Below the pieces are notes generated by a model that did no database searches, was not told where the DNA came from, and was given only the letters and a program-made list of their open reading frames with translations. The position numbers and the translations under genes are program-made. A DNA stretch of 42,116 nucleotides, taken from sequence record MN850623.1; one strand, given 5' to 3'. The stretch is from Escherichia phage sortsyn. Positions 4,459 through 33,081 of this stretch are shown here, piece by piece. Position 1 is the stretch's first letter; every line of letters starts with the position of its first letter.

Positions 4459-4743
4459 TCAGCGTAAGATCGTCCAGTCATTGGCGAACAGGTCGCCCTG
4501 TGATGGGACCCAACCCGGTTGCATTACGCCTTGCGCATTTTTAAGATCAAGATGCGGGGCGATCGTAAATTCGCCAGTGATCCCGGCCTTTGCATAATCA
4601 CTACCCGGTCGCGGCTCGTTTACGGTATACCCGCCAGCCTTGATCACGAATTGATTAGCGCCATTCCATCCAGCGCGGGCAATTTTATAACCTTCCTTCA
4701 CTGCGATCAGAGCTTCGCTAAAGCTAAGGCCGGACTTAATCAT
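4459..4743 (-). CDS. DUF2829-like small phage protein
   Basis: 94 aa with GWNG...WVPSQGDLFANDW signature recalled for DUF2829; overlaps the upstream HTH gene by 8 nt. Confidence 0.5.
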   Translation of the reverse strand: MIKSGLSFSEALIAVKEGYKIARAGWNGANQFVIKAGGYTVNEPRPGSDYAKAGITGEFTIAPHLDLKNAQGVMQPGWVPSQGDLFANDWTILR

Positions 4744-4954
4744 GATTCACTCCATACTCGATCAGGTCTGCGATCGACACGTCCAGGGCGGCAGCGAGTC
4801 GGCAGAGGTTAGTAATATGTGGCAACTCGTGCCCGTTCTCGTATCGGCTCAACTGGTGGGCGATCATGCCTACGCGTTCCGCCAGATCTTTTTGCTGGAT
4901 GCCTTTCGCCTCTCGGACCTGCTTCACGAGGCAAACGGGCTTTAATGTTGCCAT
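4736..4954 (-). CDS. XRE/Cro-type helix-turn-helix transcriptional regulator
   Basis: HTH pattern QKDLAERVGMIAHQLSRYENG; AAGGAG Shine-Dalgarno 7 nt before the second ATG (4954); ORF track start 4969 is the alternative. Confidence 0.75.
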   Translation of the reverse strand: MATLKPVCLVKQVREAKGIQQKDLAERVGMIAHQLSRYENGHELPHITNLCRLAAALDVSIADLIEYGVNHD

Positions 4955-4986
4955 GATCGGCTCCTTCATTGGTTAACGTCTCCGTG

Positions 4987-8319: not shown

Positions 8320-10362
8320 TTAAAACTCCTCATTCATGAAAATTTTGTTAGTGATAACGTCTTTACCCTTGCCGATCTTCCGGTGGCTGACCTTAAGCGG
8401 GGCCATGAAGTACGGGGCGAACTCTAATACCTGCTGGGGCGTCCGGCATTTCTTGATCGTGGCCCTCATTTTGCCGTCCAGGACGTGCTTAAGGATGCCA
8501 TTATGGACCCATTCCTTTTTCGCCGCTGGCGAGTCGCTACCGGGCCAAAATACTTGCCATGCCACAAACTGGTCCCCGTCCTTCTCCAGTTCGTACCGGA
8601 AGGCGATCCCCCCAGTCCCTCGCGCTAATTCAATTCTGAACCCTCTTACGGTCGCGTAGTCGTCGCGGCTGTACGTGGTCCGGCTTAAGTTCTTGTTAGG
8701 ATCTACGAGCGAGTTCCCGCAGCAGCGGCAGATCCTGGCTACTATGTCGTTTTGCGCCCCGCATCCCTTTTGGACCACTTTCCGCCCGCTGGCGTCCTTC
8801 CAGTCGTCGCAGGTGATGAACTGGAAAAAGTGTTCGCAGCGATCGCCGTTCTCGTCCACGTAGCGGCAGCGTCGGGCGTGTTTGCCGTTGAGCGTAGGAT
8901 GGCCCGCCTTGCGACACTTCGGACAGTCTAACTCTAATTCGCCTTTGCTCTCGTCGGCGCTGTGCTGATATGCCTCCAGCAGCGGGGAGAAGTACAGGGA
9001 TCCGAGTTCGTCCAGCGTCCCGGCGTAGTCGAGAACCAGGTGATCCTCTTTCGTCACCCCGGCGGCGATGTGGAACGGCTTAAGGATTCGCATCCCACGG
9101 CCTAAAAGCTGGGTTAGGAGCGTGAGGGAGCCGATCTTCCGCAGGATCACGGACGTGTCCCAGAACGGGACGTTAACGCCAGTCGTTAGGGCGTTAACCT
9201 GGAAAATGAACTTGATCTCCCCGGTATTGGCGCGGCGCAAAATGTCCATGCGCTTCTTGCCCGTCGTGTCGTCCGTGATGATGGCGTAAGGCGTACCAGG
9301 GGGAAGGGCCTCCGCCGCCTGTTTGCAGTGTCTCACGCCCGCACACGTCACTAACACGCCGTTCCTGTGCTGGGCGATGGCGTAGACCTCCGCCATGATC
9401 TCATGAGTGAGCTTTTTCTCTTTCAGGATCGCCTTTTGCATGGCGTCCATATCGGAGTCCGTGAACTCCTTAATGCCGTCCTCACCCGTCGATCGCCACT
9501 GGTCGAGGTTGTAGTGGAGATTGGAGATCCCGAAGTGAGTCGGAACGACCGCGCCGACGCTCACGAGGTACTCCGTCGAGATCTCGCAGACCTTTTCACG
9601 CCAGAATCCGGGCTGTTCGAGGTCGGGCTGGATGATGGACTCCACGCCCCTGTAAGGCGTCCCAGTGTAGCCGATAATGCGGAGTTCCTTCCCGTACACT
9701 GACCGGGCGCGGGCCTGTAACGTTCGGATGATGATCGTATAACTGGAGCGACCCGCCTCGATCATCTCCTCGTATGTCTCGCCCTTATGCTCGCCGATAA
9801 TGGTCGGATCCCCGAAGCCGTCGAGGATAACGGTCCCGTTATCGTCCCGCAGGTACTCCGGGACCACGCGCTCCTCCGAGCGGATCAGGTCCTCTATGTT
9901 GACGTGATGGCATTCATCGATCAGCAGGAACAACGGCGCGTAATGGGCGAGGGGCTGGCCTGGGCGGATCCCTCCGATCACTGTACCCTCGGAGCCGACG
10001 ACGATCGGGAAGTGTGCAGACTTGCGGCCTAAGCTGGCGCAGTAGATCGAGGAGTTTACGCCGAAGTTCCGCAACTCCTCAAAGTCCTGATCGATGATCT
10101 CACCCTGGCGGGACAGGATCATGGCGGGGAATCCCATATCCCTGATCCGGCGGGCCAGCATGGAGATCATGATGGTTTTCCCGGCGCTCACGGCGGCGTC
10201 CACAATGACCGGGCCGGGATATTTACGGATAGCCTTCGCGCAAGCCTCATATGCGACGAACTGGTGATCGTATGGCGTTACGGGCATATCACCGAGGGCG
10301 CGGAGAATGGCGTCGCGATCGAGGGCCGCGATCTGCCTTTCTAATGTCTCGACCATTTCCAT
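8320..10362 (-). CDS. Superfamily 2 DNA helicase (DEAH-type) with C-terminal Cys-rich zinc-binding extension
   Basis: Walker A AAVSAGKT, motif II LLIDECHH, Cys clusters CPKCRK...CRCCGNS. Confidence 0.85.
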   Translation of the reverse strand: MEMVETLERQIAALDRDAILRALGDMPVTPYDHQFVAYEACAKAIRKYPGPVIVDAAVSAGKTIMISMLARRIRDMGFPAMILSRQGEIIDQDFEELRNFGVNSSIYCASLGRKSAHFPIVVGSEGTVIGGIRPGQPLAHYAPLFLLIDECHHVNIEDLIRSEERVVPEYLRDDNGTVILDGFGDPTIIGEHKGETYEEMIEAGRSSYTIIIRTLQARARSVYGKELRIIGYTGTPYRGVESIIQPDLEQPGFWREKVCEISTEYLVSVGAVVPTHFGISNLHYNLDQWRSTGEDGIKEFTDSDMDAMQKAILKEKKLTHEIMAEVYAIAQHRNGVLVTCAGVRHCKQAAEALPPGTPYAIITDDTTGKKRMDILRRANTGEIKFIFQVNALTTGVNVPFWDTSVILRKIGSLTLLTQLLGRGMRILKPFHIAAGVTKEDHLVLDYAGTLDELGSLYFSPLLEAYQHSADESKGELELDCPKCRKAGHPTLNGKHARRCRYVDENGDRCEHFFQFITCDDWKDASGRKVVQKGCGAQNDIVARICRCCGNSLVDPNKNLSRTTYSRDDYATVRGFRIELARGTGGIAFRYELEKDGDQFVAWQVFWPGSDSPAAKKEWVHNGILKHVLDGKMRATIKKCRTPQQVLEFAPYFMAPLKVSHRKIGKGKDVITNKIFMNEEF

Positions 10363-10369
10363 TTATTCC

Positions 10370-10399
10370 TTGTAATATCATTAAAGCGTGATTTATAGT
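10370..10399 (+). promoter_or_regulatory. Putative sigma70 promoter in the divergent helicase/primase control region
   Basis: -35 TTGTAA, 18-bp spacer, -10 TATAGT, 25 nt before the AGGAGG SD of the primase-like gene. Confidence 0.4.
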
Positions 10400-10424
10400 A
10401 ACCGGGAAAACTCAGGAGGGCAAG

Positions 10425-11243
10425 ATGGCAATTTATAAAAAAGAGGACGTTCTCGCCGCAATGCCCGGCAAGTGGGAACAGGCGCTCCTCGATCTGTGCG
10501 GCTGGGACCGCAAGGCGTTTAACGGCAATCACCAGCCTTGCCCGATATGCGGCGGGACGGACCGCTTTCGATGGGGCCACAAACAGGCCACGAAGAAGGC
10601 CGAGGGCTTCGGCTACTGTTCCGGCTCCTGTGGTGGCGCTCGTGATGGCATGTTTTGGTTTATGACCAGCAGATCGCAGCCATTCAACGAGGCGATCAAC
10701 GACCTGGGCGACTGGATAGGCGGACTTACCCCGGAGAAGCGGGAAACGATCGTCAAAGAGGCCCGCAAGTATGCCCGCCAGCAGGACAAGCCCGCGCAGG
10801 ACTGGGAGCTGACCCCGGAGGACGTGGAAAAGGTCATGAGCAAAGGCGAAATGCGCGACGGCTTCCTGTATGTTCCATGCGCTCGTCCACTGGGGGGATC
10901 GCTGGGGCCGTGGTGCAACGTGGCGAAGATCGGCTCCGACAGGTCTGTGGTGTTTGCCGCTGGTGGCCCGACGTGGGGCGCGGTAGGGCTGATCCACCCA
11001 GCGCCGGACGCTCCGGTGTATCTGGTGGCGGATCCGGTCCATGCCGTGAACGTGGCGGCGAGAGGGGAGGCGGAGGTCTGGCTGACGTTCCGGCCTATGA
11101 ACGCGATCCAGGCGTCGGCGATCTACGATGGCGATCGGGAGATCCGGTTCGTCTACACTGACCCGGACGAGGTTTTCCTGTACGGCTACGAGAGGACGGG
11201 GAGGCCATGCGTCGGCGGACATCTTGCGGGGGCGTTCGGGTAA
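10425..11243 (+). CDS. Putative DNA primase (primase-helicase type zinc ribbon, Toprim-like remainder uncertain)
   Basis: HQPCPICGGTDRFRW...YCSGSCGG resembles the zinc-binding domain of P4/T7-type primases; AGGAGG SD 6 nt upstream of ATG. Confidence 0.5.
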   Translation: MAIYKKEDVLAAMPGKWEQALLDLCGWDRKAFNGNHQPCPICGGTDRFRWGHKQATKKAEGFGYCSGSCGGARDGMFWFMTSRSQPFNEAINDLGDWIGGLTPEKRETIVKEARKYARQQDKPAQDWELTPEDVEKVMSKGEMRDGFLYVPCARPLGGSLGPWCNVAKIGSDRSVVFAAGGPTWGAVGLIHPAPDAPVYLVADPVHAVNVAARGEAEVWLTFRPMNAIQASAIYDGDREIRFVYTDPDEVFLYGYERTGRPCVGGHLAGAFG

Positions 11244-11270: not shown

Positions 11271-11323
11271 CGTCGATACCAGCGGCGCTAATGTTGCTAC
11301 AGGGAAACGTGAGAAGCCATAAA

Positions 11324-11366
11324 TAGCACTTTTTGCTAAAACACAAAACAGTTAATCAATTATCGT
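11324..11366 (+). promoter_or_regulatory. Promoter cassette copy A: palindrome TAGCACTTTTTGCTA plus -10-like region (weakest copy, no TG)
   Basis: Palindrome 11324-11338; upstream of dam. Confidence 0.4.
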
Positions 11367-11396: not shown

Positions 11397-12038
11397 ATGA
11401 AAGACGAGAAAGACACCACCACGATCGACCATGTGGACGGCATGACCGAAGCGGAACGCGCAGCGGCAGACGTGACCACTGTTAGCGGTCGCCGCTTCAA
11501 CAAGTCCAAGACGCCGGACGCTATCCGCCAGAAGTGGCAGACCCCGCGCTGGCTGTTCGACTGGGCTGTGAAGCGCTTCGGGCAGTTCGGGATCGACGTC
11601 GCAGCGGAGAAAGCGAACGCGCTTTGTGACGTCTATCTGGACGAGAAAACGGACGCCCTCAAGGACGGCGTAGACTGGGGCGCGGAGGGCGGGCTGGCCT
11701 GGTGCAATCCTCCTTACGCCGAGCCGCTTCCGTGGATCGTGAAGGCTATCCAGCAAGCGAAGGATCGCGACGTTACGACCGTTTTCCTCCTGAACTCCGA
11801 CGCGTCCACGGCGTGGTTTAAGAAGGCGCTGGACGCCGGGAGCCTGGTTATTCACATCACCAGCGACGGCGAGAACTCCGGGCGCGTGGCGTTCGTGAAG
11901 GCAGGGACCGAAGTCGCGGGCAAGAAGAACAGCAAGCCGTCCGTGATGTTCGTTATCAAGCCGAAGAAGCGCGGACCGATCAAGACTGAATATCTGACCC
12001 AGGCGGAAATGATGTTCGAAGGCAAAACGATGATTTAA
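11397..12038 (+). CDS. dam: Phage Dam-family DNA N6-adenine methyltransferase
   Basis: WQTPRWLFDWAVKRFGQFGIDVAA...AWCNPPYAEP...TAWFKK: NPPY catalytic motif and the phage Dam (N6_N4 MTase) signature. Confidence 0.9.
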   Translation: MKDEKDTTTIDHVDGMTEAERAAADVTTVSGRRFNKSKTPDAIRQKWQTPRWLFDWAVKRFGQFGIDVAAEKANALCDVYLDEKTDALKDGVDWGAEGGLAWCNPPYAEPLPWIVKAIQQAKDRDVTTVFLLNSDASTAWFKKALDAGSLVIHITSDGENSGRVAFVKAGTEVAGKKNSKPSVMFVIKPKKRGPIKTEYLTQAEMMFEGKTMI

Positions 12039-13606: not shown

Positions 13607-13630
13607 AAGGCCCTCCGGGGCCTTTTTTGC
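13607..13630 (+). terminator. Rho-independent terminator
   Basis: Stem AAGGCCC/GGGCCTT then TTTTGC. Confidence 0.7.
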
Positions 13631-13633
13631 GTA

Positions 13634-13677
13634 TAGCACTTTTTGCTAAAGCAATGCCGATTATCCTTTGTTATTAT
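13634..13677 (+). promoter_or_regulatory. Promoter cassette copy B: palindrome TAGCACTTTTTGCTA plus TGtTATTAT extended -10
   Basis: Palindrome 13634-13648; TG 13669-13670; hexamer 13672-13677. Confidence 0.5.
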
Positions 13678-13705: not shown

Positions 13706-13933
13706 ATGAAACAGACATTACTCCACACCAAAACAAACAAGGCTCAGATCGTGAACCCGCTGTTACTGAAACAGGCGCACATCCTGATCGAGACAGCGAT
13801 GATCCTCCGTAACCGCCTCAAGATGTACGCGGCGGGGCCACTGGCAAAGGCAGCGCTGACCCGCGAAGCGGTCCAGGCGGAGAACGACGCCCGCGAACTT
13901 ATCCGGGGGGCGTATGGCTACCCGGCCCACTAA
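13706..13933 (+). CDS. Hypothetical protein
   Basis: ATG at 13706 downstream of promoter cassette copy B (ORF track lists 13643). Confidence 0.4.
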   Translation: MKQTLLHTKTNKAQIVNPLLLKQAHILIETAMILRNRLKMYAAGPLAKAALTREAVQAENDARELIRGAYGYPAH

Positions 13934-14192
13934 GGCCACGCGCCGGGAGATCTGGGAGGCGGCTCAGGCCGCTAACCTGGACGAGATGATCAGTAAAGTG
14001 TCCGCCGTGTTTGGCAAAGACGCGATCGCCGACATCTCGATCGAGACTCCAGACGGCGAGATGTACCTGAACAACCCGGACCCGCATCACTACCGCGTCA
14101 CGCCGGGAACCAAAAGCGAGAAGGGCGACCTTAAGCGGGCGCTGGACTCAACGAAAAACCGGAAGCACCTCAAAGGAGGATCTCGTGGGTAA
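13914..14192 (+). CDS. Hypothetical protein
   Basis: 92-aa ORF overlapping the upstream gene by 20 nt. Confidence 0.4.
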   Translation: MATRPTKATRREIWEAAQAANLDEMISKVSAVFGKDAIADISIETPDGEMYLNNPDPHHYRVTPGTKSEKGDLKRALDSTKNRKHLKGGSRG

Positions 14193-14577
14193 AGTAACAG
14201 CGCAGATTATCGGATGGACTGACGAGCAGGACGCGGAACTGACCCGCCTCGCCGGGACCATGCCGCCGCACGAACTGGCGAAGCGCATCGGTCGCAACTT
14301 CCGCCAGATGCAGGTCCGGGCCTCTAAGCTGGGCCTCTCCCTGGCGTATAACCGGACGTACACGCAATGGACGACGGAGGAGGACCGGAAGCTGGTCCGC
14401 TTCTGGGAGGGACTTCTGACCGATGAGGATCTGGACGAACTGGTGATCGCCACTGGTCGCCGGGTGATAGTACCGACTGAACTCACCCACGCGCATGTCG
14501 CGAACTGGCTCAACAAATCGCGTCCGTCAATTCGCGGACGCCTGGCAAAATTCAAGAAAGAGGGGAAAATCGCATGA
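14185..14577 (+). CDS. GcrA-like DNA-binding transcriptional regulator (two WT[DT]E[QE]D repeats)
   Basis: WTDEQDAELTRLAG...HELAKRIGRNFRQMQVRASKLGLS resembles the GcrA N-terminal domain as recalled; second repeat WTTEEDRKLVRFWEG; GTG start with AGGAGG SD. Confidence 0.5.
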   Translation: MGKVTAQIIGWTDEQDAELTRLAGTMPPHELAKRIGRNFRQMQVRASKLGLSLAYNRTYTQWTTEEDRKLVRFWEGLLTDEDLDELVIATGRRVIVPTELTHAHVANWLNKSRPSIRGRLAKFKKEGKIA

Positions 14578-17317: not shown

Positions 17318-17554
17318 TTACCTCTTGCCTTTGACCTGGAGCCGCTGACGACGGCCCCGCGTTTTGTTGTTGTACTCCTCGTGGGATAACAGATCCCACG
17401 TCTCCCCCTCGTCCCACGTCACGAGCCGCCAGCTATAGCCCACGTTGAACGCTGATACCTTGCCGAACCCCTTCAACCGCTTAGGCGCGATCTCCTTCGC
17501 GTAGTAGCGGGCCAGAATCTCGTCGGCCTTCCGCTGGACCTTCTCCGGGATCAT
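17318..17554 (-). CDS. Hypothetical small basic protein
   Basis: Start ATG overlaps the stop of the upstream gene (ATGA), so coupling rather than a frameshift. Confidence 0.45.
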   Translation of the reverse strand: MIPEKVQRKADEILARYYAKEIAPKRLKGFGKVSAFNVGYSWRLVTWDEGETWDLLSHEEYNNKTRGRRQRLQVKGKR

Positions 17555-17969: not shown

Positions 17970-18218
17970 TTAATACTCGTCGGCGCGGATCTTGTTACGG
18001 TGGATCAGGCGATTCAGTTCGAACTCGCCGCGAGTCATGAACTCGTCCACGCGTTCCTCCTGTTCCGGCTCCTCGCCTGTTAATTCCGGCGCTTTCCATG
18101 AGAGATAGCGCTTAACTGTGCCAGTTTTCACGAACGCCGGGAGCAGGTTTTTAAAGTTACGTGACCACTGACGCCCGCGCTCTTGATCGCCTTTTACCAT
18201 GATTGTTAAGTTTGCCAT
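17970..18218 (-). CDS. Hypothetical protein, first gene downstream of promoter cassette copy C
   Basis: 82-aa ORF beginning 47 nt after the cassette -10. Confidence 0.45.
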   Translation of the reverse strand: MANLTIMVKGDQERGRQWSRNFKNLLPAFVKTGTVKRYLSWKAPELTGEEPEQEERVDEFMTRGEFELNRLIHRNKIRADEY

Positions 18219-18264
18219 CGTTATCTCTCCGGTAGTGGGCGACCCATTGCCGCCCGGTGAAAGA

Positions 18265-18307
18265 ACTATAACAACATTTGATAAATCGCTTTTAGCAATT
18301 CGTGCTA
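18265..18307 (-). promoter_or_regulatory. Promoter cassette copy C (minus strand): palindrome TAGCACGAATTGCTA plus TGtTATAGT extended -10
   Basis: Palindrome 18293-18307; hexamer 18265-18270 on the minus strand. Confidence 0.5.
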
Positions 18308-18900
18308 TCCGGGTAAAGATATTCGCTCAACCGGGCCACCAGGTCCGAGTCCGGCCCGATCGGGTACAGCCCGCCGTCGTTGTTTACCGCGTGATGGATC
18401 TCAGCCAGCAATTGCTCCGCCCGCTGGAGCTTGTTCGTCGCCGCGTTATCATGCCCGATCAGCTTCGTGATCTCAGTCTCCAGGCGTCCGCCGAGTTCGG
18501 TCGTCGTGCAGTGTTCGGCCCACTCGCGAGACTCCAGCAGTTTGACCACGGCCCACACGTCCGAGTCGAGGCCGACAGTAGGGCCAGGCTGGAGCCGTGG
18601 CTGGAGTTCGTCGAGCGTCTGCTGGGTGGCGTTTAACGTCCGGCGGATCTTGTCCTGTTCGGACTTGCTCAGATCCAGGATAAGCGGATCAGGCGGCAGA
18701 CCCAGCAGCAGAGGGCGAACCTTTTCGAACGGCTCCACGCTCAGACAATCCTCCATCGTTCCCTCCTCCGTGTCGGGGAGCGTGTAGTGGAGCCGGGCGC
18801 GTCCGGTCTTTTCGTCCAGGCTGAACGAATTGATCGCGGCGATACTCAGGAACCACTCGCAATTAAATTCCGGCTCACCTACTGCGATATATCTGATCAT
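18292..18900 (-). CDS. Hypothetical protein
   Basis: 202-aa ORF; last five codons plus stop are encoded by promoter cassette copy C. Confidence 0.5.
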   Translation of the reverse strand: MIRYIAVGEPEFNCEWFLSIAAINSFSLDEKTGRARLHYTLPDTEEGTMEDCLSVEPFEKVRPLLLGLPPDPLILDLSKSEQDKIRRTLNATQQTLDELQPRLQPGPTVGLDSDVWAVVKLLESREWAEHCTTTELGGRLETEITKLIGHDNAATNKLQRAEQLLAEIHHAVNNDGGLYPIGPDSDLVARLSEYLYPDSTNC

Positions 18901-19340
18901 CTCTCTTTCCTCATGGCTTGTTTACATTGTAAGGCAGCGAGGGCCAACTCCGGGCCAATCTCGACGCCTGGGGGGAACTCCATCGGATCCGACACTGGCG
19001 GGGCCAGCTTCGAACGGTCAACGCGCAGATCACGCAGCAGTCCGGCGCGTTCCATCTTTGCCGTGTGACGGCAGAGCGCGGAGAGCTTCCGCTGGTCAAC
19101 GCCGGGGCATTCGAAGAACGCGGCGAACAATTGCTCCGACGGCTTAAGCATGGAGAACGCTTTCCGAGTCTCGTCCGTAGGTACGAACGGATCGATCAGC
19201 CCCTTGTCGATAGCGTCCAGCACCGACAGATCAGTGGGCGCTATCTTGTCGAGTATCTCCTGGCGCTTCTCCGCCGCCGTCTTGCGCGGCGCTCCGGCGG
19301 TAGCCGGGGCCGTAGTTCGCTTCTGTTTGAATAAGTCCAC
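18897..19340 (-). CDS. Hypothetical protein, first gene of the minus-strand block
   Basis: GTG start with GGAGG SD; ATGA-type overlap with next gene. Confidence 0.5.
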   Translation of the reverse strand: MDLFKQKRTTAPATAGAPRKTAAEKRQEILDKIAPTDLSVLDAIDKGLIDPFVPTDETRKAFSMLKPSEQLFAAFFECPGVDQRKLSALCRHTAKMERAGLLRDLRVDRSKLAPPVSDPMEFPPGVEIGPELALAALQCKQAMRKER

Positions 19341-19367
19341 GTTCGCCTCCGTTGTTGTTCGTCTTTA

Positions 19368-19395
19368 AGCATACATGACGTAACAGTGATGTAAA
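19368..19395 (-). promoter_or_regulatory. Putative sigma70 promoter for the minus-strand block 19340 to 15565
   Basis: Minus-strand -35 TTTACA, 16-bp spacer, -10 TATGCT in the AT-rich divergent intergenic region. Confidence 0.4.
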
Positions 19396-19480
19396 GAGTT
19401 TTCTTTACTGGTGCGGATTGACGGCGTTATGAATCACTGTTAAGTTATGAACACTTTATTAACGCAGCAGGGAAAAGACA

Positions 19481-21169
19481 ATGACTGATTATGATGAAGT
19501 AATGCCGACACCAGAGCGCAGCGAGGAGGAGCTGATCGAGATGGTCCGGGGCGAGTTCTCCGGCCCGGTAACGCCTCCACCTGCTGACGACGTGCCAGAG
19601 GCTCCTATGGAGTTCTACGAGGAACAGGCCAGCCTGTACGCGGCGAGAGAAGCAGAATCCGCCCAGGATGCCGGGGCGTTCTTCGACTTCGACGAGCACG
19701 AGGCCGCAGAGTGGACGGCAACCGTCCGCAACGACAAGCCGACGATCGTCAAGACGTCCGACCTCACCGACGAGGAGAAGGACGAAGCACGTCGCCAGGA
19801 ACTCCTCGCGAAGCAGCGCGAGAAGCAGCGCAAGAAGATCGACGAGGCGCTGGCGGTCGAGGCAATGGACGACCCGCTGATCGCCAGCCTGAACAAGTCG
19901 AACGAGATCAAGCCCGTTAACTATGTGATCCAGTCGCTGATCCCGGAGCGCTCCGTGGGCTTCCTGGTCGGCGAGTCCGGCGCAAAGAAAACGTTCGCAG
20001 CGTTACAAATGGCGATTTGTGTCGCCACCGGGATCGACTTCGGCGGCTTGCCAGTCCGACAGGGATCCGTGATGTACTTCGCGCCGGAGGATGCGAGCGG
20101 CGTCCGTGAACGTTACGCGGGATGGAAGTACACGCAGAACAAGAACGAGCCGTTACCCAACTTTTGGGTATTGTCCCAGCAGGTCCCACTACACCGCGAG
20201 AGCGAACTCCAGACGTTCGCGGCAACCATCAAGGCGTCCCCGTTCTTCGGCCTGAACCCGCTTTCCCTGATCGTGATCGATACCTACAGCGCCAACAGCG
20301 CGGGCCAGAAAGTGGGCGAGCGCATGATCCCAGGCAAGGGCGACGAGCCGGACCGCTGGGAGGGCGGGACCGACTTCAACGAGAACGACAACAACGTGGC
20401 GGCGATCCTGATGCGTAACGCGGCGTTACTGGCTGAATGGCTTAACTGTGCCGTGATGATCATCCACCACACCGGGAAGGACACCGAGCGAGGCGCTCGT
20501 GGCGCGTCAACCCTCCGCGCTAACGCCGGATTCGAGATCATGGTGAAGAAGTGCAGGGACAAGGAGCTTTTTGTGATTGAGCACACGAAGGCCAAAGGCT
20601 GTGCGCTTCTCCCGGCGCGAGCCATGCGCACGAAGTCCGCGAAGTTACCGCCTGACCTGGTGAAGATGAAGCGCGAGGCGCTGGCGAGGATGCAGCCTGT
20701 ACGCCCGGAGGCGAAGGCCAACCCGGCGGCGTGGGAGATCGGCGACAACCTGGGGACGCTGGTCGTCATTAACGCGCTGGAGGCAGTGCCAGCCGAGAAG
20801 GACGAGGGCGAGAAGCCGGAGGACACGCGCAAGCGCAGCAAGAAGGAGGAACAGGCGATCCGACTGCTGGCCTACGTCGTGGAATACTCGCAGCAGCGCA
20901 AGGACAAGGGCTACCGCTTGCCGAAGCTGACCAAAGGCATGTTATCCGATCACTTCCGCAACTTCGCAGAGCCGCCGATTAAGCGGACGGACTTTTTCCA
21001 CGCCTTCGAACATGCGACCAAAAAAATGATGATCATCAAAATGGCAGGGGACGAAACGCTGACCGCCTCAACCGAAGCGGCTCCGCTCCTGGGTGGAATC
21101 CGGGATCAGAAGCCACTCCCGACCGACTGGAAACCGACCGAAGGATCCGACGATCTGAGTGACTTTTAA
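19481..21169 (+). CDS. RepA-like AAA_25/RecA-fold ATPase, putative replication initiator-helicase
   Basis: GFLVGESGAKKTFAALQMA (deviant Walker A), Walker B LIVIDTYS, IIHHTGKD motif typical of RepA/DnaB-like ATPases; acidic N-terminal region. Confidence 0.65.
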   Translation: MTDYDEVMPTPERSEEELIEMVRGEFSGPVTPPPADDVPEAPMEFYEEQASLYAAREAESAQDAGAFFDFDEHEAAEWTATVRNDKPTIVKTSDLTDEEKDEARRQELLAKQREKQRKKIDEALAVEAMDDPLIASLNKSNEIKPVNYVIQSLIPERSVGFLVGESGAKKTFAALQMAICVATGIDFGGLPVRQGSVMYFAPEDASGVRERYAGWKYTQNKNEPLPNFWVLSQQVPLHRESELQTFAATIKASPFFGLNPLSLIVIDTYSANSAGQKVGERMIPGKGDEPDRWEGGTDFNENDNNVAAILMRNAALLAEWLNCAVMIIHHTGKDTERGARGASTLRANAGFEIMVKKCRDKELFVIEHTKAKGCALLPARAMRTKSAKLPPDLVKMKREALARMQPVRPEAKANPAAWEIGDNLGTLVVINALEAVPAEKDEGEKPEDTRKRSKKEEQAIRLLAYVVEYSQQRKDKGYRLPKLTKGMLSDHFRNFAEPPIKRTDFFHAFEHATKKMMIIKMAGDETLTASTEAAPLLGGIRDQKPLPTDWKPTEGSDDLSDF

Positions 21170-21422
21170 CGGGGCGTTGTGTTCCGTTAACGTTATCCCC
21201 TCTCTTATAGAGAGAGGGATAAACGCGTAACGTTAACAACATATGCCGGAAAGTCTAAACAACGTTAACTATGAACTGAAAATTAACATAACAGATTCAT
21301 GAAGTTACAAGAGAAGTGTTAACAGGTTTATGGCAAATCGTTAATGCGGAAATCAGGGGGTAAAAATCGGGGGCCACCCCCGAAAAATCCCCGCTTAAAT
21401 AATCATTGATAAGTGATGCGAA
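21170..21422. other. Candidate replication origin: AT-rich non-coding region with GTTAAC-containing iterons and a ~28-bp imperfect palindrome
   Basis: 253-bp gap after the RepA-like gene; GTTAAC at 21186, 21232, 21254, 21318; AACGTTAAC repeated; palindrome TATCCCCTCTCTTATAGAGAGAGGGATA at 21195-21222; GC hairpin GGGGGCCACCCCC. Confidence 0.45.
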
Positions 21423-21611
21423 ATGAGCGACGATAACAACGTGATTTTATTCCCCCGACGGACAGCAGTCGGACAGGTTGAACCAGCACGATCGAACCAC
21501 TGGATCGAACGGTTCGGATTGTGGAATTACTTCCTGATGGTGGCGACAACCATCGGCGCGATCGTGGTCGGACTGGCGGCGATCGTGTTTAACATGCTGG
21601 GCCTGATGTGA
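21423..21611 (+). CDS. Small membrane protein
   Basis: 62 aa with C-terminal hydrophobic helix. Confidence 0.4.
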   Translation: MSDDNNVILFPRRTAVGQVEPARSNHWIERFGLWNYFLMVATTIGAIVVGLAAIVFNMLGLM

Positions 21612-22164: not shown

Positions 22165-22343
22165 TCTGGCTCGCCTTCGCTTACGAGGTCCTGGTGATCG
22201 CCTGGATCGGCATGACCAGAGGGACCGACGCTATCCTGACCAACTGGGAAAAGCTGGCGGTCCTCGCGCCGTTCCTGCTGGCGTCTGGCTGGGCCGTCGT
22301 CGATCTGGTCCGTTCCATCCGTCGAATGAGAAAGGATAAATAG
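22161..22343 (+). CDS. Small membrane protein
   Basis: 60 aa, two hydrophobic segments; stop codon TAG is the first triplet of promoter cassette copy D. Confidence 0.4.
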   Translation: MIWLAFAYEVLVIAWIGMTRGTDAILTNWEKLAVLAPFLLASGWAVVDLVRSIRRMRKDK

Positions 22344-22383
22344 CACGAATTGCTAAAACGTCCCCGGTGATAATTGATAATAT
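22341..22383 (+). promoter_or_regulatory. Promoter cassette copy D: palindrome TAGCACGAATTGCTA plus TGaTAATAT extended -10
   Basis: Palindrome 22341-22355; TG 22375-22376; hexamer 22378-22383. Confidence 0.5.
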
Positions 22384-22431
22384 GTTTTCACCGGGCGACG
22401 AGACGCCCACCACGAACCAGAGGGCAAGACC

Positions 22432-22710
22432 ATGACAGCAGTCAACGCAACCACCAAAAAATATGCAGTTAAGCGCGGCCTGGACGTTACGATGGAAGAT
22501 ATCAACGACGACGGAAAGATCCTGCTGTGCGTGTGGGAAGCTGACAATGATTGTGAGTGGATGTTCTCCTATCTGGTCAACCCTAACGGCTCTTATACAT
22601 GGAATGGCAATATCTACCTCGACAGCAGCGTGAAAGAGGAATTGCCAGCCACTATCCGCGACGAGAAGCACCTCCGCGAAGTCCTGGCCTTCATCGCCGC
22701 GAACATCTAA
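22432..22710 (+). CDS. Hypothetical protein
   Basis: 92-aa ORF downstream of cassette copy D. Confidence 0.45.
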   Translation: MTAVNATTKKYAVKRGLDVTMEDINDDGKILLCVWEADNDCEWMFSYLVNPNGSYTWNGNIYLDSSVKEELPATIRDEKHLREVLAFIAANI

Positions 22711-23465: not shown

Positions 23466-23738
23466 ATGATCTACGAACTGATCGCCTCTTTCCTGATGCT
23501 GGGCGTCGCTTATATCTTCATGGAGTGCAGGGCGGGCGCAGCGGCCTACCTGGGCCGCAAGATGGCGGAGGAGGTGAGGGCCATCCCTCACTCCCTGATC
23601 CCTCTCGTCGCCTTCATCGTGGCATTGCTGGCGGTCCTCGTGCTGGCTGTTACGCTGGTGATCTGGCCCTACTTCGCGTGGAACGACTGGCGAAACGGGA
23701 CACTGTTCAAGGCCGGGCGTTATGACGGCATCGAATAG
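23466..23738 (+). CDS. Membrane protein
   Basis: Two predicted TM helices; stop TAG is the first triplet of cassette copy E. Confidence 0.45.
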   Translation: MIYELIASFLMLGVAYIFMECRAGAAAYLGRKMAEEVRAIPHSLIPLVAFIVALLAVLVLAVTLVIWPYFAWNDWRNGTLFKAGRYDGIE

Positions 23739-23778
23739 CACGAATTGCTAAAACGCACTTATCAAATGTTGTTATAGT
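23736..23778 (+). promoter_or_regulatory. Promoter cassette copy E: palindrome TAGCACGAATTGCTA plus TGtTATAGT extended -10
   Basis: Palindrome 23736-23750; hexamer 23773-23778. Confidence 0.55.
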
Positions 23779-23825
23779 TCTTCTCGACGGCGGGAAATGG
23801 TCCCGCCACTGACCGGGAGAACATC

Positions 23826-24026
23826 ATGAAATCATTAGCTGATACACTCGCAGACATTCAGGCCGAGATCGACCGCCAGAAGGCGAGCGGCGACGTCTCC
23901 CCGCTGGTGGCTGGTATCATCGCCCACGAGATGGCAGAGGCGGCAGACATTGAGCCGACCGAGTGGGACCTGATCGACGACGAAGCGGCTCTCCGCGCAC
24001 TGCCTGGCTACTACGACGGCTTTTAA
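23826..24026 (+). CDS. Small acidic protein
   Basis: 66 aa, strongly acidic; first gene after cassette copy E. Confidence 0.45.
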   Translation: MKSLADTLADIQAEIDRQKASGDVSPLVAGIIAHEMAEAADIEPTEWDLIDDEAALRALPGYYDGF

Positions 24027-28743: not shown

Positions 28744-29295
28744 ATGATTATGATCGGCATTGTGGACTATGACGGCGAGATGGTGGCTTGTAAGCATTGC
28801 GGAGAAGTTAAGGCAAGGACGCCGGATAACTTCGCTACTACGTCCGGCTATAAGGGGCGTAAATATGTTATGAAGGTATGCCGCAAATGCAAGAACAGCA
28901 GACACGCAGACAGGCAGCGGAAGAAGCGCGAGGCGGAGCCGGAGGTGGATCAGGCTATGCGTGAGGCAGTGAGGCGACACCGGGCAACCGGGCGAGGCTA
29001 TGCGGTATGCAAGATCAACACGTACCGAAGCCGTGACCGAAAGAAGGGCATGGAGTGCGATCTGGATCCAGACTGGTATCTGGAGAACATCACCGCCAAG
29101 CCCTGCTACTCATGCGGAGAGACGTCCGACACTATGGGCGCGGACCGCATAGACAACGACCTGGGACACATCAAGGGCAACGTTTTACCCTGCTGTGCTG
29201 ATTGCAATAGAATAAGGGCGCACCGTTTTACGATGGAAGATATGCGCGACCTAATCGGGCCAGCTATCGCAAAAGTGAAGGCAAGGCGGCTATAA
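28744..29295 (+). CDS. HNH endonuclease (free-standing, between terL and portal)
   Basis: GADRIDNDLGHIKGNVLPCCADCNRIRA HNH core plus Cys4 zinc ligands; AGA/AGG/ATA codon usage unlike neighbours. Confidence 0.8.
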   Translation: MIMIGIVDYDGEMVACKHCGEVKARTPDNFATTSGYKGRKYVMKVCRKCKNSRHADRQRKKREAEPEVDQAMREAVRRHRATGRGYAVCKINTYRSRDRKKGMECDLDPDWYLENITAKPCYSCGETSDTMGADRIDNDLGHIKGNVLPCCADCNRIRAHRFTMEDMRDLIGPAIAKVKARRL

Positions 29296-31563: not shown

Positions 31564-31594
31564 CTGGTCGGACCGCACGAAAAGCTAAAGACAA

Positions 31595-31620
31595 GCCCGG
31601 CAAGTCCGGGCTATTCTTTG
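31595..31620 (+). terminator. Terminator-like hairpin after portal
   Basis: Stem GCCCGG/CCGGGC then TATTCTTTG. Confidence 0.5.
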
Positions 31621-31658: not shown

Positions 31659-31880
31659 ATGGCCCGATCACTGATAGCAGTCAAAGACGCCGCCGGGGAA
31701 AAGTATCTCCTCCCGGTCCGTAACATCGTGAGCGTGACGGAGTTCCCGGACAACGAGCGCCGCGTGGAGGTCAAAGTCCGCGAGCCGATCAACGGCCCAG
31801 ACGGGCGGATCTGTGGGTACGAGTTAAATCTGTATTACTCGCCAATGTCGATCGCACAATTCGAAGGGGCTTACGCATGA
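31659..31880 (+). CDS. Hypothetical protein
   Basis: 73-aa ORF. Confidence 0.45.
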   Translation: MARSLIAVKDAAGEKYLLPVRNIVSVTEFPDNERRVEVKVREPINGPDGRICGYELNLYYSPMSIAQFEGAYA

Positions 31881-32290
31881 ACCAGGAAAAAGTAATCCGC
31901 GCCGTTCTTCTGGCTCAGGCCGACGAGATGGGGATCCTCGACAAAGTGAAGGCGCACGAGGCCCGCCTGGCGGCTCGCTTCATCCAGCAGCCGACCGAGG
32001 AGGATCTGGCGGCGTATGGCCTGGCGCTGGCGCTGGTCGGCGCTCGCGCTTCGGAACTCATGACCAACGCGGAGCCGCAGGTGAAGGCGGGCGAGGTGGA
32101 ACCCGCTCCGATCGAGGTGGACCTGATGCCGACGGCGGAGCAGGTGGAGGCGGGCATTAAATCCCTGTGGGACGTCATACCGGGCGCGATGGATCAAGTC
32201 GTGCAGGACGACCCGGACGGCTCGGACGCGGTATTTTCTGACGCGGTGACGTTCGTCTGGCAAGGCATGATCGGCGCTCGCGCCAAATAG
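31877..32290 (+). CDS. Hypothetical protein
   Basis: 137-aa ORF; stop TAG is the first triplet of cassette copy F. Confidence 0.45.
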   Translation: MNQEKVIRAVLLAQADEMGILDKVKAHEARLAARFIQQPTEEDLAAYGLALALVGARASELMTNAEPQVKAGEVEPAPIEVDLMPTAEQVEAGIKSLWDVIPGAMDQVVQDDPDGSDAVFSDAVTFVWQGMIGARAK

Positions 32291-32330
32291 CACGAATTGC
32301 TAAAACAGCCTGATTATCAAATGTTATATT
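32288..32330 (+). promoter_or_regulatory. Promoter cassette copy F: palindrome TAGCACGAATTGCTA plus TGtTATATT extended -10
   Basis: Palindrome 32288-32302; hexamer 32325-32330. Confidence 0.55.
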
Positions 32331-32380
32331 GATTGTGTCGGCGGGGAATGGTCCCCGCCACTGACCAGAGAGACTACAAA

Positions 32381-32818
32381 ATGACTACTAAAACTTACAT
32401 CAAAAAACAATTCATTTGCCTGTGCGTCGCGGACGGTACACGCTCCAGCTTCTACAAACGCGGGGAGACTTACGTCTCCGACCACGACCTGGGCGACCTG
32501 TACAGCGTGGAGAAGCACACGAAGGACAACTCCGACCCGGCGCTGGTCCTGCTGGAGACTCGCGAGATCGAGATCGTCTACGAGGAGCCGACCGCCGAGC
32601 GCATCGCGGAACTTGCTCTCCCACTGCTGGAGAATGGCCTCCAGACCCTCCGCGCTTCGTTCTACATGGCGGAACAGAAGTTCCTCGCCGACATTGCCAG
32701 CATTCGCCAGCTTACCTACAAAGGCCCAATCGAAGGCGACTACGTGGCAGCAGCCGACAGCGCTCGCGACGTAACCCCTCGCAAGGACGACGACGTGGAG
32801 GACGCCGAGATCGTATGA
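32381..32818 (+). CDS. Hypothetical protein, first gene after promoter cassette copy F
   Basis: Start at ATG 32381 downstream of the cassette 5'UTR hairpin (ORF track 32333). Confidence 0.5.
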   Translation: MTTKTYIKKQFICLCVADGTRSSFYKRGETYVSDHDLGDLYSVEKHTKDNSDPALVLLETREIEIVYEEPTAERIAELALPLLENGLQTLRASFYMAEQKFLADIASIRQLTYKGPIEGDYVAAADSARDVTPRKDDDVEDAEIV

Positions 32819-33081
32819 AACATCACTATTTAGCCTTTCCGAGCGGGGGAGTCGCATCCCTCGCGAAGCTGGCCCAGGTGGAGACGGAACTCCACGACCT
32901 GGACGGCTTCCTGACCGGGCCAGAGGGGAACCGCTGGCGCATCGTAGCCAGTGAGAGGATCCACGGCTTCGAGAAGGACGGGGGAGACGTCGCGCCGTAC
33001 TACGTGATCCCCGCTTCGGTTCCACCGCATCACGAGGCGCTCTACCTATCCCAGCAGGTCGTAAGAGCCGCCACGAAATAA
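32815..33081 (+). CDS. Hypothetical protein
   Basis: ATGA overlap with upstream stop; 88 aa. Confidence 0.45.
   Translation: MKHHYLAFPSGGVASLAKLAQVETELHDLDGFLTGPEGNRWRIVASERIHGFEKDGGDVAPYYVIPASVPPHHEALYLSQQVVRAATK

Follow-up and report, generated by a model that had tools for sequence, protein, structure and literature searches.

We analysed a 42,116-nucleotide (nt) stretch of DNA from Escherichia phage sortsyn (sequence record MN850623.1; referred to over its whole length as the window) with a focus on a short regulatory unit at positions 23736–23825, which recurs with variations in front of several unrelated genes. At this locus, the plus-strand gene 23466–23738 ends with a TAG stop codon (23736–23738) that is part of the 20-bp motif ATAGCACGAATTGCTAAAAC (23735–23754), whose palindromic core spans 23736–23750. 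Eighteen base pairs further downstream follows the extended −10 element TGTTATAGT (23770–23778) with the hexamer TATAGT (23773–23778), and transcription is predicted to start 7–9 nt after this hexamer, at 23785–23787, by analogy with the E. coli micF promoter. No −35 hexamer stands at a spacing of 17 bp, and a canonical −35/−10 scan does not call the site. The predicted leader carries the hairpin GGCGGGAAATGGTCCCGCC (GGCGGGA-AATGG-TCCCGCC; 23789–23807) with a 7-bp stem, a pentaloop and a minimum free energy (MFE) of −14.2 kcal/mol, which begins 10 nt after the −10 hexamer and ends 18 nt before the start codon. The A/C-rich linker ACTGACC, the Shine-Dalgarno (SD) sequence GGGAG (23815–23819) and the ATG at 23826 complete the unit (23808–23828) and lead into an open reading frame (ORF; 23826–24026, plus strand) of 66 aa, assigned to phrog_34680, for which no function is assigned.

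The closest match of the window discussed here is Enterobacteria phage IME_EC2 (Murrayvirus, ~41.5 kb), with 96.7% identity over 90% of a 15-kb query; the window is oriented as the reverse complement of that genome. Relatives compared as whole genomes were Lumpael, KMB41 and ST231 (Murrayvirus) and Sortsne, IME279 and sortkaff (Sortsnevirus).

An earlier note on this DNA had described three near-identical copies of the unit, C (18218–18307, minus strand), E (23736–23825) and F (32288–32380), as a portable module with a conserved hairpin in the 5′ untranslated region. All three are present at these positions, and the 24-nt block TTATCAAATGTTGTTATAGTTCTT is indeed identical in C and E; its counterpart in F, TTATCAAATGTTATATTGATT, is related and shorter. 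Pairwise identity, measured from the start of the 20-bp motif to the ATG, is 85% for C/E, 82% for E/F and 79% for C/F, so that 'near-identical' is an overstatement, while the similarity does reach beyond the palindrome and extends over the whole ~95 nt. The downstream proteins (82, 66 and 145 aa for C, E and F) are unrelated as claimed, with no mutual similarity detectable by blastp.

The family is larger than these three copies. The upstream half of C, E and F is also present in A (11324), B (13634) and D (22341), and D has a hairpin as well; the identity of these three to C, E and F is 57–74%, and the whole family is 57–85% alike. In addition to these six cassettes, the window holds a seventh, degenerate and non-palindromic copy (31572–31591). 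Perfect TAGCA-N5-TGCTA dyads occur six times in the window, more often than any other dyad of this type in the genome, and nine sites are observed at up to three mismatches compared to a mean of 0.64 in shuffled sequences. All six dyad sites are oriented toward the downstream gene. The TAG of the motif serves as stop codon of the upstream gene in three copies, and in C the stop codon is a TAA inside GCTAAA; the cassette therefore closes reading frames in two of the three phases. ATCAC(G/T), considered as a further repeated motif, is not enriched in the window (6 found, 6 expected).

Marbox sequence and promoter geometry

With its flanks, the motif reads ATAGCAC(GAA/TTT)TTGCTAAAAC, which is a consensus marbox, the site of MarA, SoxS and Rob. 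It agrees with the MarA consensus from chromatin immunoprecipitation (ChIP), GCAnnWWnTGnnAAA (PMC12052159), at 10 of 10 specified positions, and six exact matches to this consensus, E among them, are found in the window where 0.13 are expected. Of the soxbox/marbox consensus AYNGCACNNWNNRYYAAAYN (PMC2064960), the phage motif, including the E copy, has 13 of the 14 specified positions, and AYNGCACNNWNNRYYAAAY is matched seven times with at most one mismatch, against 0.32 expected. The 'consensus marbox' gcactaattgctaaa of Sharma et al. 2017 (PMC5684230) is identical to the phage motif at 14 of 15 positions. We built a weight matrix from the 33 ChIP-mapped E. coli MarA sites of the same study (PMC5684230), and the six main phage sites score 18.0–18.8 of a possible 20.0 bits (18.8 for E), on a par with the best four to six host sites; in leave-one-out scoring, the host sites reach 11.7 bits in the median and 19.5 bits at best. 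The seven phage sites are the seven top-scoring positions of the window on both strands, and the next best position reaches 13.5. The phage sites are one base away from the host sites of yneO, yeeF and ypeC, which bind MarA at 0.3 µM (PMC5684230), and the marRAB marbox of the K-12 genome agrees with the TTT variant at 16 of 20 bases.

Among 426 unique related sites that we gathered from phage DNA, positions A1, A3, G4, C5, A6, C7, T11, T12, G13, T15 and A16–18 are near-invariant, and positions 8–10 read GAA or TTT. At position 14, 304 sites have C and 109 have T, a substitution that fits the 'Y' of the marbox and breaks the dyad (TTGTTA). The dyad is thus broken and the marbox pattern kept in 109 of the 426 sites, and the same holds for the seventh copy and for the C copies of Lumpael and ST231. 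The flanks are asymmetric, with A1 on one side and AAA(A/C) on the other, and the reverse strand has no AAA element. What had been called a palindrome is better described as an asymmetric 20-bp marbox in class II position, in which dyad symmetry is not the conserved feature. By sequence and position, the 20-mer is almost certainly a marbox. A T4 MotA box was considered as well and shows a superficial TGCT match, with position and spacing wrong.

The distance from the end of the marbox to the −10 hexamer is exactly 18 bp in all of the six cassettes except B, which has 19 bp; counted from the last base of the dyad, it is 22 nt in the five and 23 nt in B. The −10-like hexamers are TATAGT, TATATT, TAATAT or TATCGT in five copies and TATTAT in B, and in copies B–F the hexamer is directly preceded by TGn as an extended −10. 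In 331 of the 426 related sites the −10 is found at exactly 18 bp, while spacer and leader diverge freely. Relative to the predicted −10, the marbox is centred near −42, in forward orientation and in place of the −35: no −35 hexamer is present at 16–18 bp in the six Murrayvirus cassettes, and the canonical promoter scan calls none of them. From copy to copy, a TTATCA element moves by 3 nt at a constant distance between dyad and −10, which identifies the dyad and the −10 as the elements with a fixed position.

Class II marbox promoters are known from the literature (including PMC12052159) to contain a forward site near −41 that overlaps the −35 region, with no recognisable −35 hexamer. The micF promoter is a class II promoter with solved complexes containing RamA, Rob and SoxS; in E. 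coli K-12 it reads ACAGCACTGAATGTCAAAAC, 18 bp, TAGAAT, 7 nt and +1, with the same 18-bp spacing as the phage cassettes. All features of the class (orientation, overlap with the −35, position of the centre, short and fixed distance to the −10 and absence of a −35 hexamer) are found in the phage cassettes, and the spacing typical of the class is 18–19 bp. We consider it very probable that the units are promoter cassettes.

Other assignments of the same letters fail. As a σ54 (−24/−12) promoter, TAGCAC-N3-TTGC compares with TGGCAC-N5-TTGC and has AG for GG and a spacing 2 bp too short. TTGCTA as a −35 lies 22 bp from the −10, with no alternative −10 at 16–18 bp, and TTATCA as a −35 lies just 8 bp from the −10, apart from its 3-nt shift between copies. 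In repressor sites of the stoperator type the overlap with stop codons would find a place, and this overlap is real, but the fixed −10 on the 3′ side and the gene-proximal orientation fit a promoter better. The geometry also bears on the reading of the block shared by C, E and F as a 5′ untranslated region: the hairpin does fall in the predicted leader, whereas the TTATCAAATGTTGTTATAGT block contains the extended −10, so that most of the shared block is promoter and not leader.

The remaining cassettes vary the arrangement found in E. In C (minus strand), the marbox ATAGCACGAATTGCTAAAAG (18289–18308) contains the TAA (18294–18292) that ends the upstream gene 18292–18900, and the extended −10 TGTTATAGT (18265–18273) follows after 18 bp. 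The hairpin GGGCGGCAATGGGTCGCCC (GGGCGGC-AATGG-GTCGCCC; 18237–18255) begins 9 nt after this −10 and stands 18 nt before the ATG at 18218 of an 82-aa ORF (17970–18218, minus strand) that leads into the lysis genes. In F (plus strand), the marbox ATAGCACGAATTGCTAAAAC (32287–32306) includes the TAG (32288–32290) of gene 31877–32290 and is followed after 18 bp by the extended −10 TGTTATATT (32322–32330) and, 9 nt after the latter, by the hairpin GGCGGGGAATGGTCCCCGCC (GGCGGGG(A)-ATGG-(T)CCCCGCC; 32340–32359; MFE −18.3, z-score −2.8). ACTGACC, the SD sequence AGAGAG and the ATG at 32381 come next, the last opening a 145-aa ORF (32381–32818) 5′ of the scaffold and coat genes. D (22340–22408, plus strand) comprises a marbox (22340–22359), the extended −10 TGATAATAT (22375–22383) with the inverted repeat CCCGGTG/CACCGGG on either side of it, and the hairpin GGGCG-ACGAGA-CGCCC (22393–22408) 9 nt after the −10, and precedes a 92-aa ORF of phrog_6147 (22432–22710, plus strand).

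Hairpins are missing from the leaders of A and B (both plus strand). In A, the marbox ATAGCACTTTTTGCTAAAAC (11323–11342; 18.0 bits) is followed at 18 bp by TATCGT (11361–11366) and by a CA-rich leader, and the ATG at 11397 opens a Dam-type methylase operon. In B, an intrinsic terminator (13607–13624) stands just 5′ of the marbox ATAGCACTTTTTGCTAAAGC (13633–13652), and the extended −10 TGTTATTAT (13669–13677) at 19-bp spacing precedes the ATG at 13706. The seventh copy (plus strand) consists of the non-palindromic marbox ACCGCACGAAAAGCTAAAGA (31572–31591), which with 16.9 bits is the seventh-best position of the window, and of TATTCT (31612–31617) at 20-bp spacing; a GC hairpin lies within its spacer, and the ORF 31659–31880 follows.

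Distribution of the motif and candidate binding proteins

The exact 17-mer of the motif is found in at least 120 stretches of IMG/VR, mostly contigs of ~50 kb. A 30-nt probe matched 4542 places in 1090 phage records; almost all of these phages have Enterobacterales hosts, and most are T1-like. By organism name, these records include Klebsiella (504), Escherichia (356), Salmonella (37), Shigella (35), Citrobacter (29), Enterobacter (28), Cronobacter (19) and Pantoea (7). The carriers are Drexlerviridae (~50 kb; T1-like and webervirus-like), Murrayvirus (~41 kb) and T4-like phages (~177 kb; single copies). T1-like phages have up to eight marbox promoters within 8 kb of small ORFs, for example at L053:970–7659. 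Twenty-one motif-bearing records are labelled 'Campylobacter phage' (e.g. MG065675 and MG065679; two are listed with 47 and 50 kb) and may be T1-like coliphages with a wrong host label. None of the papers in the library that we searched connects marboxes with phage promoters or includes the motif string; a phage proteomics paper naming Rob proved irrelevant.

The motif is absent from the Sortsnevirus genomes compared (Sortsne, IME279 and sortkaff). At the positions orthologous to cassettes B, C and E, these genomes have canonical promoters, e.g. TTGCAT-17-TATATT and TTGCGG-17-TATATT, and the marbox version is therefore interchangeable with a host-only promoter. Murrayvirus and Sortsnevirus together represent a natural promoter-swap experiment, in which the same downstream hairpins stand behind either marbox or −35/−10 promoters.

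Among the ~40 window proteins scanned against Pfam and/or PHROGs, no AraC/MarA-like protein is found. The only clear DNA-binding regulator found in the window is an XRE-family helix-turn-helix (HTH) protein of 77 aa (4736–4969, minus strand). Homologues of it are found in 113 records, the close ones being confined to Murrayvirus and Sortsnevirus. We compared it with its Sortsnevirus counterparts (L006:16745–16957 in Sortsne and L007:17146–17373). The protein is 74% identical between the genera, and several differences concentrate in the predicted recognition helix (MIAHQLSRYE vs ILQQRLSCYE), which suggests a changed operator specificity. A 130-aa protein encoded 3′ of cassette B (14185–14577, plus strand) has a partial match to phrog_323, 'transcriptional regulator, D5-like' (E 6.5e-17), and a faint Crp-type HTH match; it is kept in both genera and is a possible second regulator. 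The window proteins shared with T1-like loci are only replication/methylase enzymes and a few ORFs downstream of cassettes, e.g. the D ORF, and no phage regulator was found to track with the motif.

The consensus match, the host range, the lack of a shared phage regulator and the Sortsnevirus promoter swap all favour a host factor of the MarA/SoxS/Rob(/RamA) family. That a protein of this family acts at the phage marbox is, judged from these comparisons, an even to slightly better than even prospect. Several observations count against it: (i) the phage motif is tighter than the host consensus, with A3, T11 and T12 near-invariant, which could reflect the specificity of another protein; (ii) the six principal copies in the window are all perfect dyads, as a dimeric regulator would want; (iii) according to the host fields of the records, the phages form plaques on unstressed K-12, in which levels of MarA and SoxS are low; (iv) Rob is described as having high affinity but as sequestered most of the time, and MarA and SoxS as acting via RNA polymerase complexes (PMC5684230); (v) the extended −10 may give activator-independent basal activity; and (vi) the −10 elements and transcription starts of the cassettes are predicted from sequence.

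Two other accounts of the upstream half have to be weighed. The cassettes could be activator-independent extended −10 promoters, with the 20-mer as a recombination linker and stop module (gene conversion) or as an A-rich UP-like element. TGn precedes the −10 in B–F, and a promoter with an extended −10 can do without a −35; the units are 57–85% alike and lie at mosaic breakpoints, and growth on unstressed K-12 is readily accommodated. The 20-mer and its 18-bp distance are, however, fixed in 426 sites while spacer and leader diverge, which argues for a selected and positioned site, and a linker needs neither a 14/15 match to the host marbox nor a kept orientation. We regard this account as unlikely.

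We give somewhat less credence to the TAGCA-N5-TGCTA dyad as the operator of a phage dimeric HTH protein, the XRE protein at 4736–4969, whose likeness to a marbox would be coincidental. Positioned at about −42, this protein would activate or shut off activator-independent extended −10 promoters, similar to Mu Mor/C. All six main copies in the window being perfect dyads, XRE being the only clear DNA-binding regulator found, and its recognition helix differing between Murrayvirus, which has the motif, and Sortsnevirus, which does not, with the remainder 74% identical, are as expected for an operator. The numbers of carriers disagree, with the motif in 1090 records but XRE homologues in 113 and close ones in the two genera only, and no other window protein is common to the T1-like loci besides the replication/methylase enzymes and a few cassette-downstream ORFs. 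Furthermore, the marbox positions are kept where the dyad is broken (109 of 426 sites, the seventh copy and the C copies of Lumpael and ST231), there is no symmetry between the conserved flanks (A1 vs AAA(A/C)), and we estimate the probability that consensus, orientation and 18-bp spacing coincide by chance at roughly 1e-5.

Mu Mor/C and P2 Ogr promoters are activator-dependent, have no −35 and rely on phage-encoded activators. Like the cassettes, they combine a recognisable −10 and the absence of a −35 with a conserved site at about −42 to −55 before several operons. Their sites are bound by phage activators, whereas the site described here equals the host consensus and no candidate activator is shared among the carriers.

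The leader hairpin

In the predicted leaders of C, D, E and F, the MFE fold is the claimed hairpin (−11.7 to −18.3 kcal/mol), and the leaders of A and B are unstructured. C and E have the loop AAYGG, F has ATGG (AAUGG if the A-U closing pair is open) and D has ACGAGA. The earlier note had grouped the hairpin of C with that of E; both copies have one, and the loop is the same, but the stem sequence of C differs. Likewise, the sequence after the hairpin is CACTGACC in E and F as described, whereas C has CACTACC instead, and SD and ATG then follow in each. The hairpin starts 9–10 nt after the −10 in Murrayvirus C, E and F as well as in the Sortsnevirus orthologues of C and E, which have σ70 promoters. 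Given a transcription start ~7 nt after the −10, as in micF, the hairpin is therefore predicted to begin at about +3/+4. The same offset puts the predicted starts of the other cassettes near 18258 (C, minus strand), 32337 (F) and 22390 (D), and ~7 nt past the −10 in A and B.

The E orthologue of Sortsne has the identical hairpin behind its σ70 promoter. The stems of the C orthologues are wholly different yet complementary (GGGCGGC/GTCGCCC vs GCCGGGG/CCCCGGC) and enclose the same AATGG loop. In a set of seven distinct sequences, partly picked by a stem filter and with orthologous positions fixed by synteny, 49 of 49 cells are paired and four of the seven pairs have changed on both sides. None of 500 shuffles reaches the observed pairing or covariation score and one of 500 reaches the double-changed count; in slid controls, pairing falls to 41–57%. 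The covarying stem, the pairing of every cell and the conserved loop indicate structural selection and bear out the earlier suggestion of an RNA-level element in the leader; on this comparative evidence, the hairpin is probably a selected RNA structure.

Function is less clear-cut. The hairpin is more likely a stabiliser of the mRNA end than a switch, and we tentatively assign it a role in 5′-end stabilisation or insulation, at slightly less than an even chance. 5′-terminal stabilising stem-loops are known from the ompA 5′ untranslated region and from the T7 gene 10 leader. These share with the phage cassettes a stable hairpin a few nucleotides from the (here predicted) 5′ end, an unstructured leader and a strong SD sequence; the cassettes differ in their conserved loop, which a pure end-cap does not need, and in a 5′ end that is only predicted. 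Four considerations weaken the case for the hairpin and for this role. The folding z-scores are modest (−0.9 to −2.8), and because a hairpin filter contributed to the choice of the covariation set, the pairing of 100% is in part a product of that choice. A hairpin is dispensable for promoter function, given that A and B do without one. Finally, an inverted repeat is present in 78% of the T1-like cassettes, mostly in the spacer, over or flanking the −10 (e.g. GGGGTAA..tatag..TTACCCC); because these repeats mostly overlap the promoter and not the leader, a purely 5′-end role cannot be general.

The cassette hairpins have no U-tract, being followed by CACTGACC or CACTACC, and the terminator scan calls none of them, in disagreement with an intrinsic terminator. 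Rfam 15 gives no match at gathering score anywhere in the window. An upstream ORF beginning at the AUG of the loop was considered and is treated as chance: its frame and stop are not conserved, with C, E and F differing from each other and F of KMB41 reading AACGG.

GC hairpins ~20 nt 5′ of start codons are common between genes in this phage group, and the hairpin does not, as had been proposed, mark C, E and F as a subfamily. Promoter-less intercistronic examples stand 17–23 nt before start codons, e.g. 5′ of 17928, 5452, 24073 and 22756. Among orthologues, their loops are UUCG/UCCG/UACG at one locus and GCAA/GAAA/GCGA at another, and the stems change; variation only within the UNCG or GNRA class points to RNA-level selection. 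The intercistronic hairpins look like a general RNA punctuation system in these phages, from which the promoter-proximal hairpins are set apart by the AAYGG loop and the fixed distance to the −10.

A conserved loop would also be expected if the hairpin were a protein-recruiting RNA site like λ boxB/nut, by which an antiterminator or another phage factor is loaded onto RNA polymerase, letting transcription continue past the many intercistronic hairpins further downstream. The boxB loops of lambdoid nut sites are conserved while their stems differ, and here AAYGG is kept while the stems differ completely between paralogues and genera. The hairpin is found at a fixed distance from either promoter type, the operons contain many GC hairpins, and small basic proteins are encoded, e.g. 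at 17318–17554 with the C-terminus KTRGRRQRLQVKGKR. Nevertheless, we consider such a site improbable: no boxA-like element is visible in the leaders of E and F, no N-like protein is found among the window proteins scanned, and the downstream hairpins have no U-tracts and are not called as terminators, so that there may be nothing to antiterminate. The deviating loop of D, the absence of a hairpin from A and B and the lack of an Rfam match also disagree with it.

Least probable, in our assessment, is a hairpin that serves read-through RNA, as an attenuator or a 3′-end barrier for the upstream mRNA in the way of promoter-early stem-loop (PeSL) cassettes: the inverted repeats in 78% of T1-like cassettes mostly lie where only read-through RNA contains them, PeSL stem-loops terminate transcription in reporter tests and promoter-less intercistronic hairpins of the same build are common here, but the hairpin of C, E and F is fixed 9–10 nt 3′ of the −10 in both genera and thereby tied to the start, it has no U-tract, and a terminator at this place would also stop the cassette's own transcript.

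Portability, related systems and implications

The earlier proposal of a portable regulatory module before unrelated genes holds up in the comparison with related phages, in which the cassette edges are breakpoints of insertion, deletion and replacement and the homology of the window with its relatives breaks off. Lumpael and ST231 lack cassette F together with its 145-aa ORF (32294–32820). Behind E, a different gene has taken the place of the window's gene in Lumpael, KMB41 and ST231, with junctions inside the cassette and at the next unit of hairpin and ribosome-binding site. KMB41 has an extra gene inserted at the ATG following B, and Lumpael and ST231 lack the gene that precedes D, the junction falling 5 nt 5′ of the marbox. 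Homologues of the D ORF (phrog_6147), 39–62% identical, are encoded in six T1-like loci (L029, L083, L088, L093, L101 and L127), and in all five with a readable upstream region (L029, L083, L088, L101 and L127) they stand behind a marbox promoter of their own, as holds for each of the T1-like homologues with 53–62% identity, which implies that units of promoter plus ORF are exchanged between phage families. The cassettes mark, and probably mediate, gene insertion, deletion and replacement.

PeSL cassettes were described in T4-type phages (Arbiol et al. 2010; Comeau et al. 2014), and the concept gives the stem-loop a choice of five places with respect to the promoter, one of them directly ahead of the SD sequence. 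Both kinds of unit are ~100-bp intergenic combinations of promoter, GC stem-loop, SD and ATG that are repeated before unrelated small ORFs and lie at the boundaries of indels or replacements between close relatives. PeSL cassettes have consensus −35/−10 σ70 promoters with AT-rich upstream sequences, whereas the marbox replaces the −35 here (the Sortsnevirus orthologues do have a −35); PeSL stem-loops are terminators, whereas the hairpins described here have no U-tracts and lie in the leader; and the phage lineages differ. Because it has no −35 and no terminator-type stem-loop, the cassette is not a strict PeSL.

Class II marbox promoters such as micF have in common with the cassettes a 20-bp asymmetric site in forward orientation, centred at about −41/−42, that replaces the −35 at 18 bp from a σ70-type −10. 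They differ in that the cassettes are phage-borne, with 6–7 copies per 42 kb (up to 8 in 8 kb in T1-like phages), and in that the phage marboxes are near-invariant and of consensus strength, whereas host marboxes are degenerate. Phage marboxes drive blocks of replication-associated methylase, lysis and virion genes; host marboxes drive stress genes. The upstream half is a class II marbox promoter by sequence and geometry, and the whole unit is PeSL-like by organisation and evolutionary behaviour.

Further features of the window lie apart from the cassettes. The divergent regions 10362–10425 and 19340–19481 have ordinary σ70 promoters, e.g. TTGACG-17-TAAGTT and TTTACA-16-TATGCT, which stand ahead of replication and early genes. 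The 253 non-coding bp after the primase/helicase gene (21169–21423, especially 21185–21269) contain a CGTTAAC cluster, an inverted repeat and a GC hairpin and are a candidate replication origin or regulator array; CGTTAAC occurs 17 times in the window compared to 3.3 expected, four times within this segment, and also in Sortsnevirus intergenic regions. A plus-strand ORF of 183 aa between the large terminase and portal genes (28744–29295), with its own TATAAT just 5′, is absent from all seven relatives compared; its product matches phage endonuclease VII/HNH families (phrog_1035, E 1.6e-19), and it is probably a homing endonuclease insertion. The 94-aa product of 4459–4743 (minus strand) matches a Tad2-like Thoeris anti-defence domain (PF11195, E 2.3e-22); its gene is the final one of the leftward replication/recombination operon and adjoins the XRE gene.

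The best explanation of the unit as a whole, which we hold with moderate confidence, is a portable σ70 cassette with activation by the MarA/SoxS/Rob family and a 5′ hairpin. Each self-contained expression cassette would be read by the host σ70 RNA polymerase, and the stop codons of the marbox, in two frames, would close the upstream gene. An activator of the MarA/SoxS/Rob family would bind the marbox as a monomer and contact σ region 4 and the C-terminal domain of the α subunit, thereby substituting for −35 recognition as at class II marbox promoters, e.g. micF; Rob would be the constitutively made member, and RamA would act in Klebsiella and Salmonella. Transcription would start ~7 nt after the extended −10 (TGnTATAGT-like), and in C, D, E and F the first structured RNA element would be the GC hairpin of 5–8 bp from about +3, which may shield the RNA from 5′-end-dependent decay and insulate the A/C-rich linker and the SD sequence. 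The alike ~95-nt units at gene boundaries would serve gene exchange in the manner of T4-type PeSL cassettes.

A broader proposal, on which we remain more hesitant, is that many promoters of T1-like phages (Drexlerviridae including Klebsiella weberviruses) and of Murrayvirus are consensus class II marboxes, with expression dependent on Rob, MarA, SoxS or RamA. If this is true, it would explain how these phages maintain many transcription units without an evident phage-encoded transcription factor, and a large, therapeutically used group of enterobacterial phages would couple its transcription to clinical multidrug-resistance regulators. Resistant mutants with excess MarA, RamA or SoxS would show stronger phage gene expression, as would cells under bile salts, salicylate or redox drugs, and the many high-affinity sites on replicating phage DNA could titrate the regulators off host efflux and porin genes. 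The AAYGG-loop hairpin could also be a dedicated protein-binding RNA element. The cassettes would provide compact, strong and activator-tunable promoter/leader/ribosome-binding-site parts, and the PeSL idea of regulatory cassettes as joints of mosaicism would be extended to two more lineages, with promoter-plus-ORF exchange between them. Phage yield should be lower in rob marA soxS mutants and higher in marR, ramR and soxR mutants or with bile salts, a prediction that is simple to test; such antibiotic-resistance mutations would then carry a phage-sensitivity trade-off, which is of relevance to the phage therapy of multidrug-resistant enteric bacteria.

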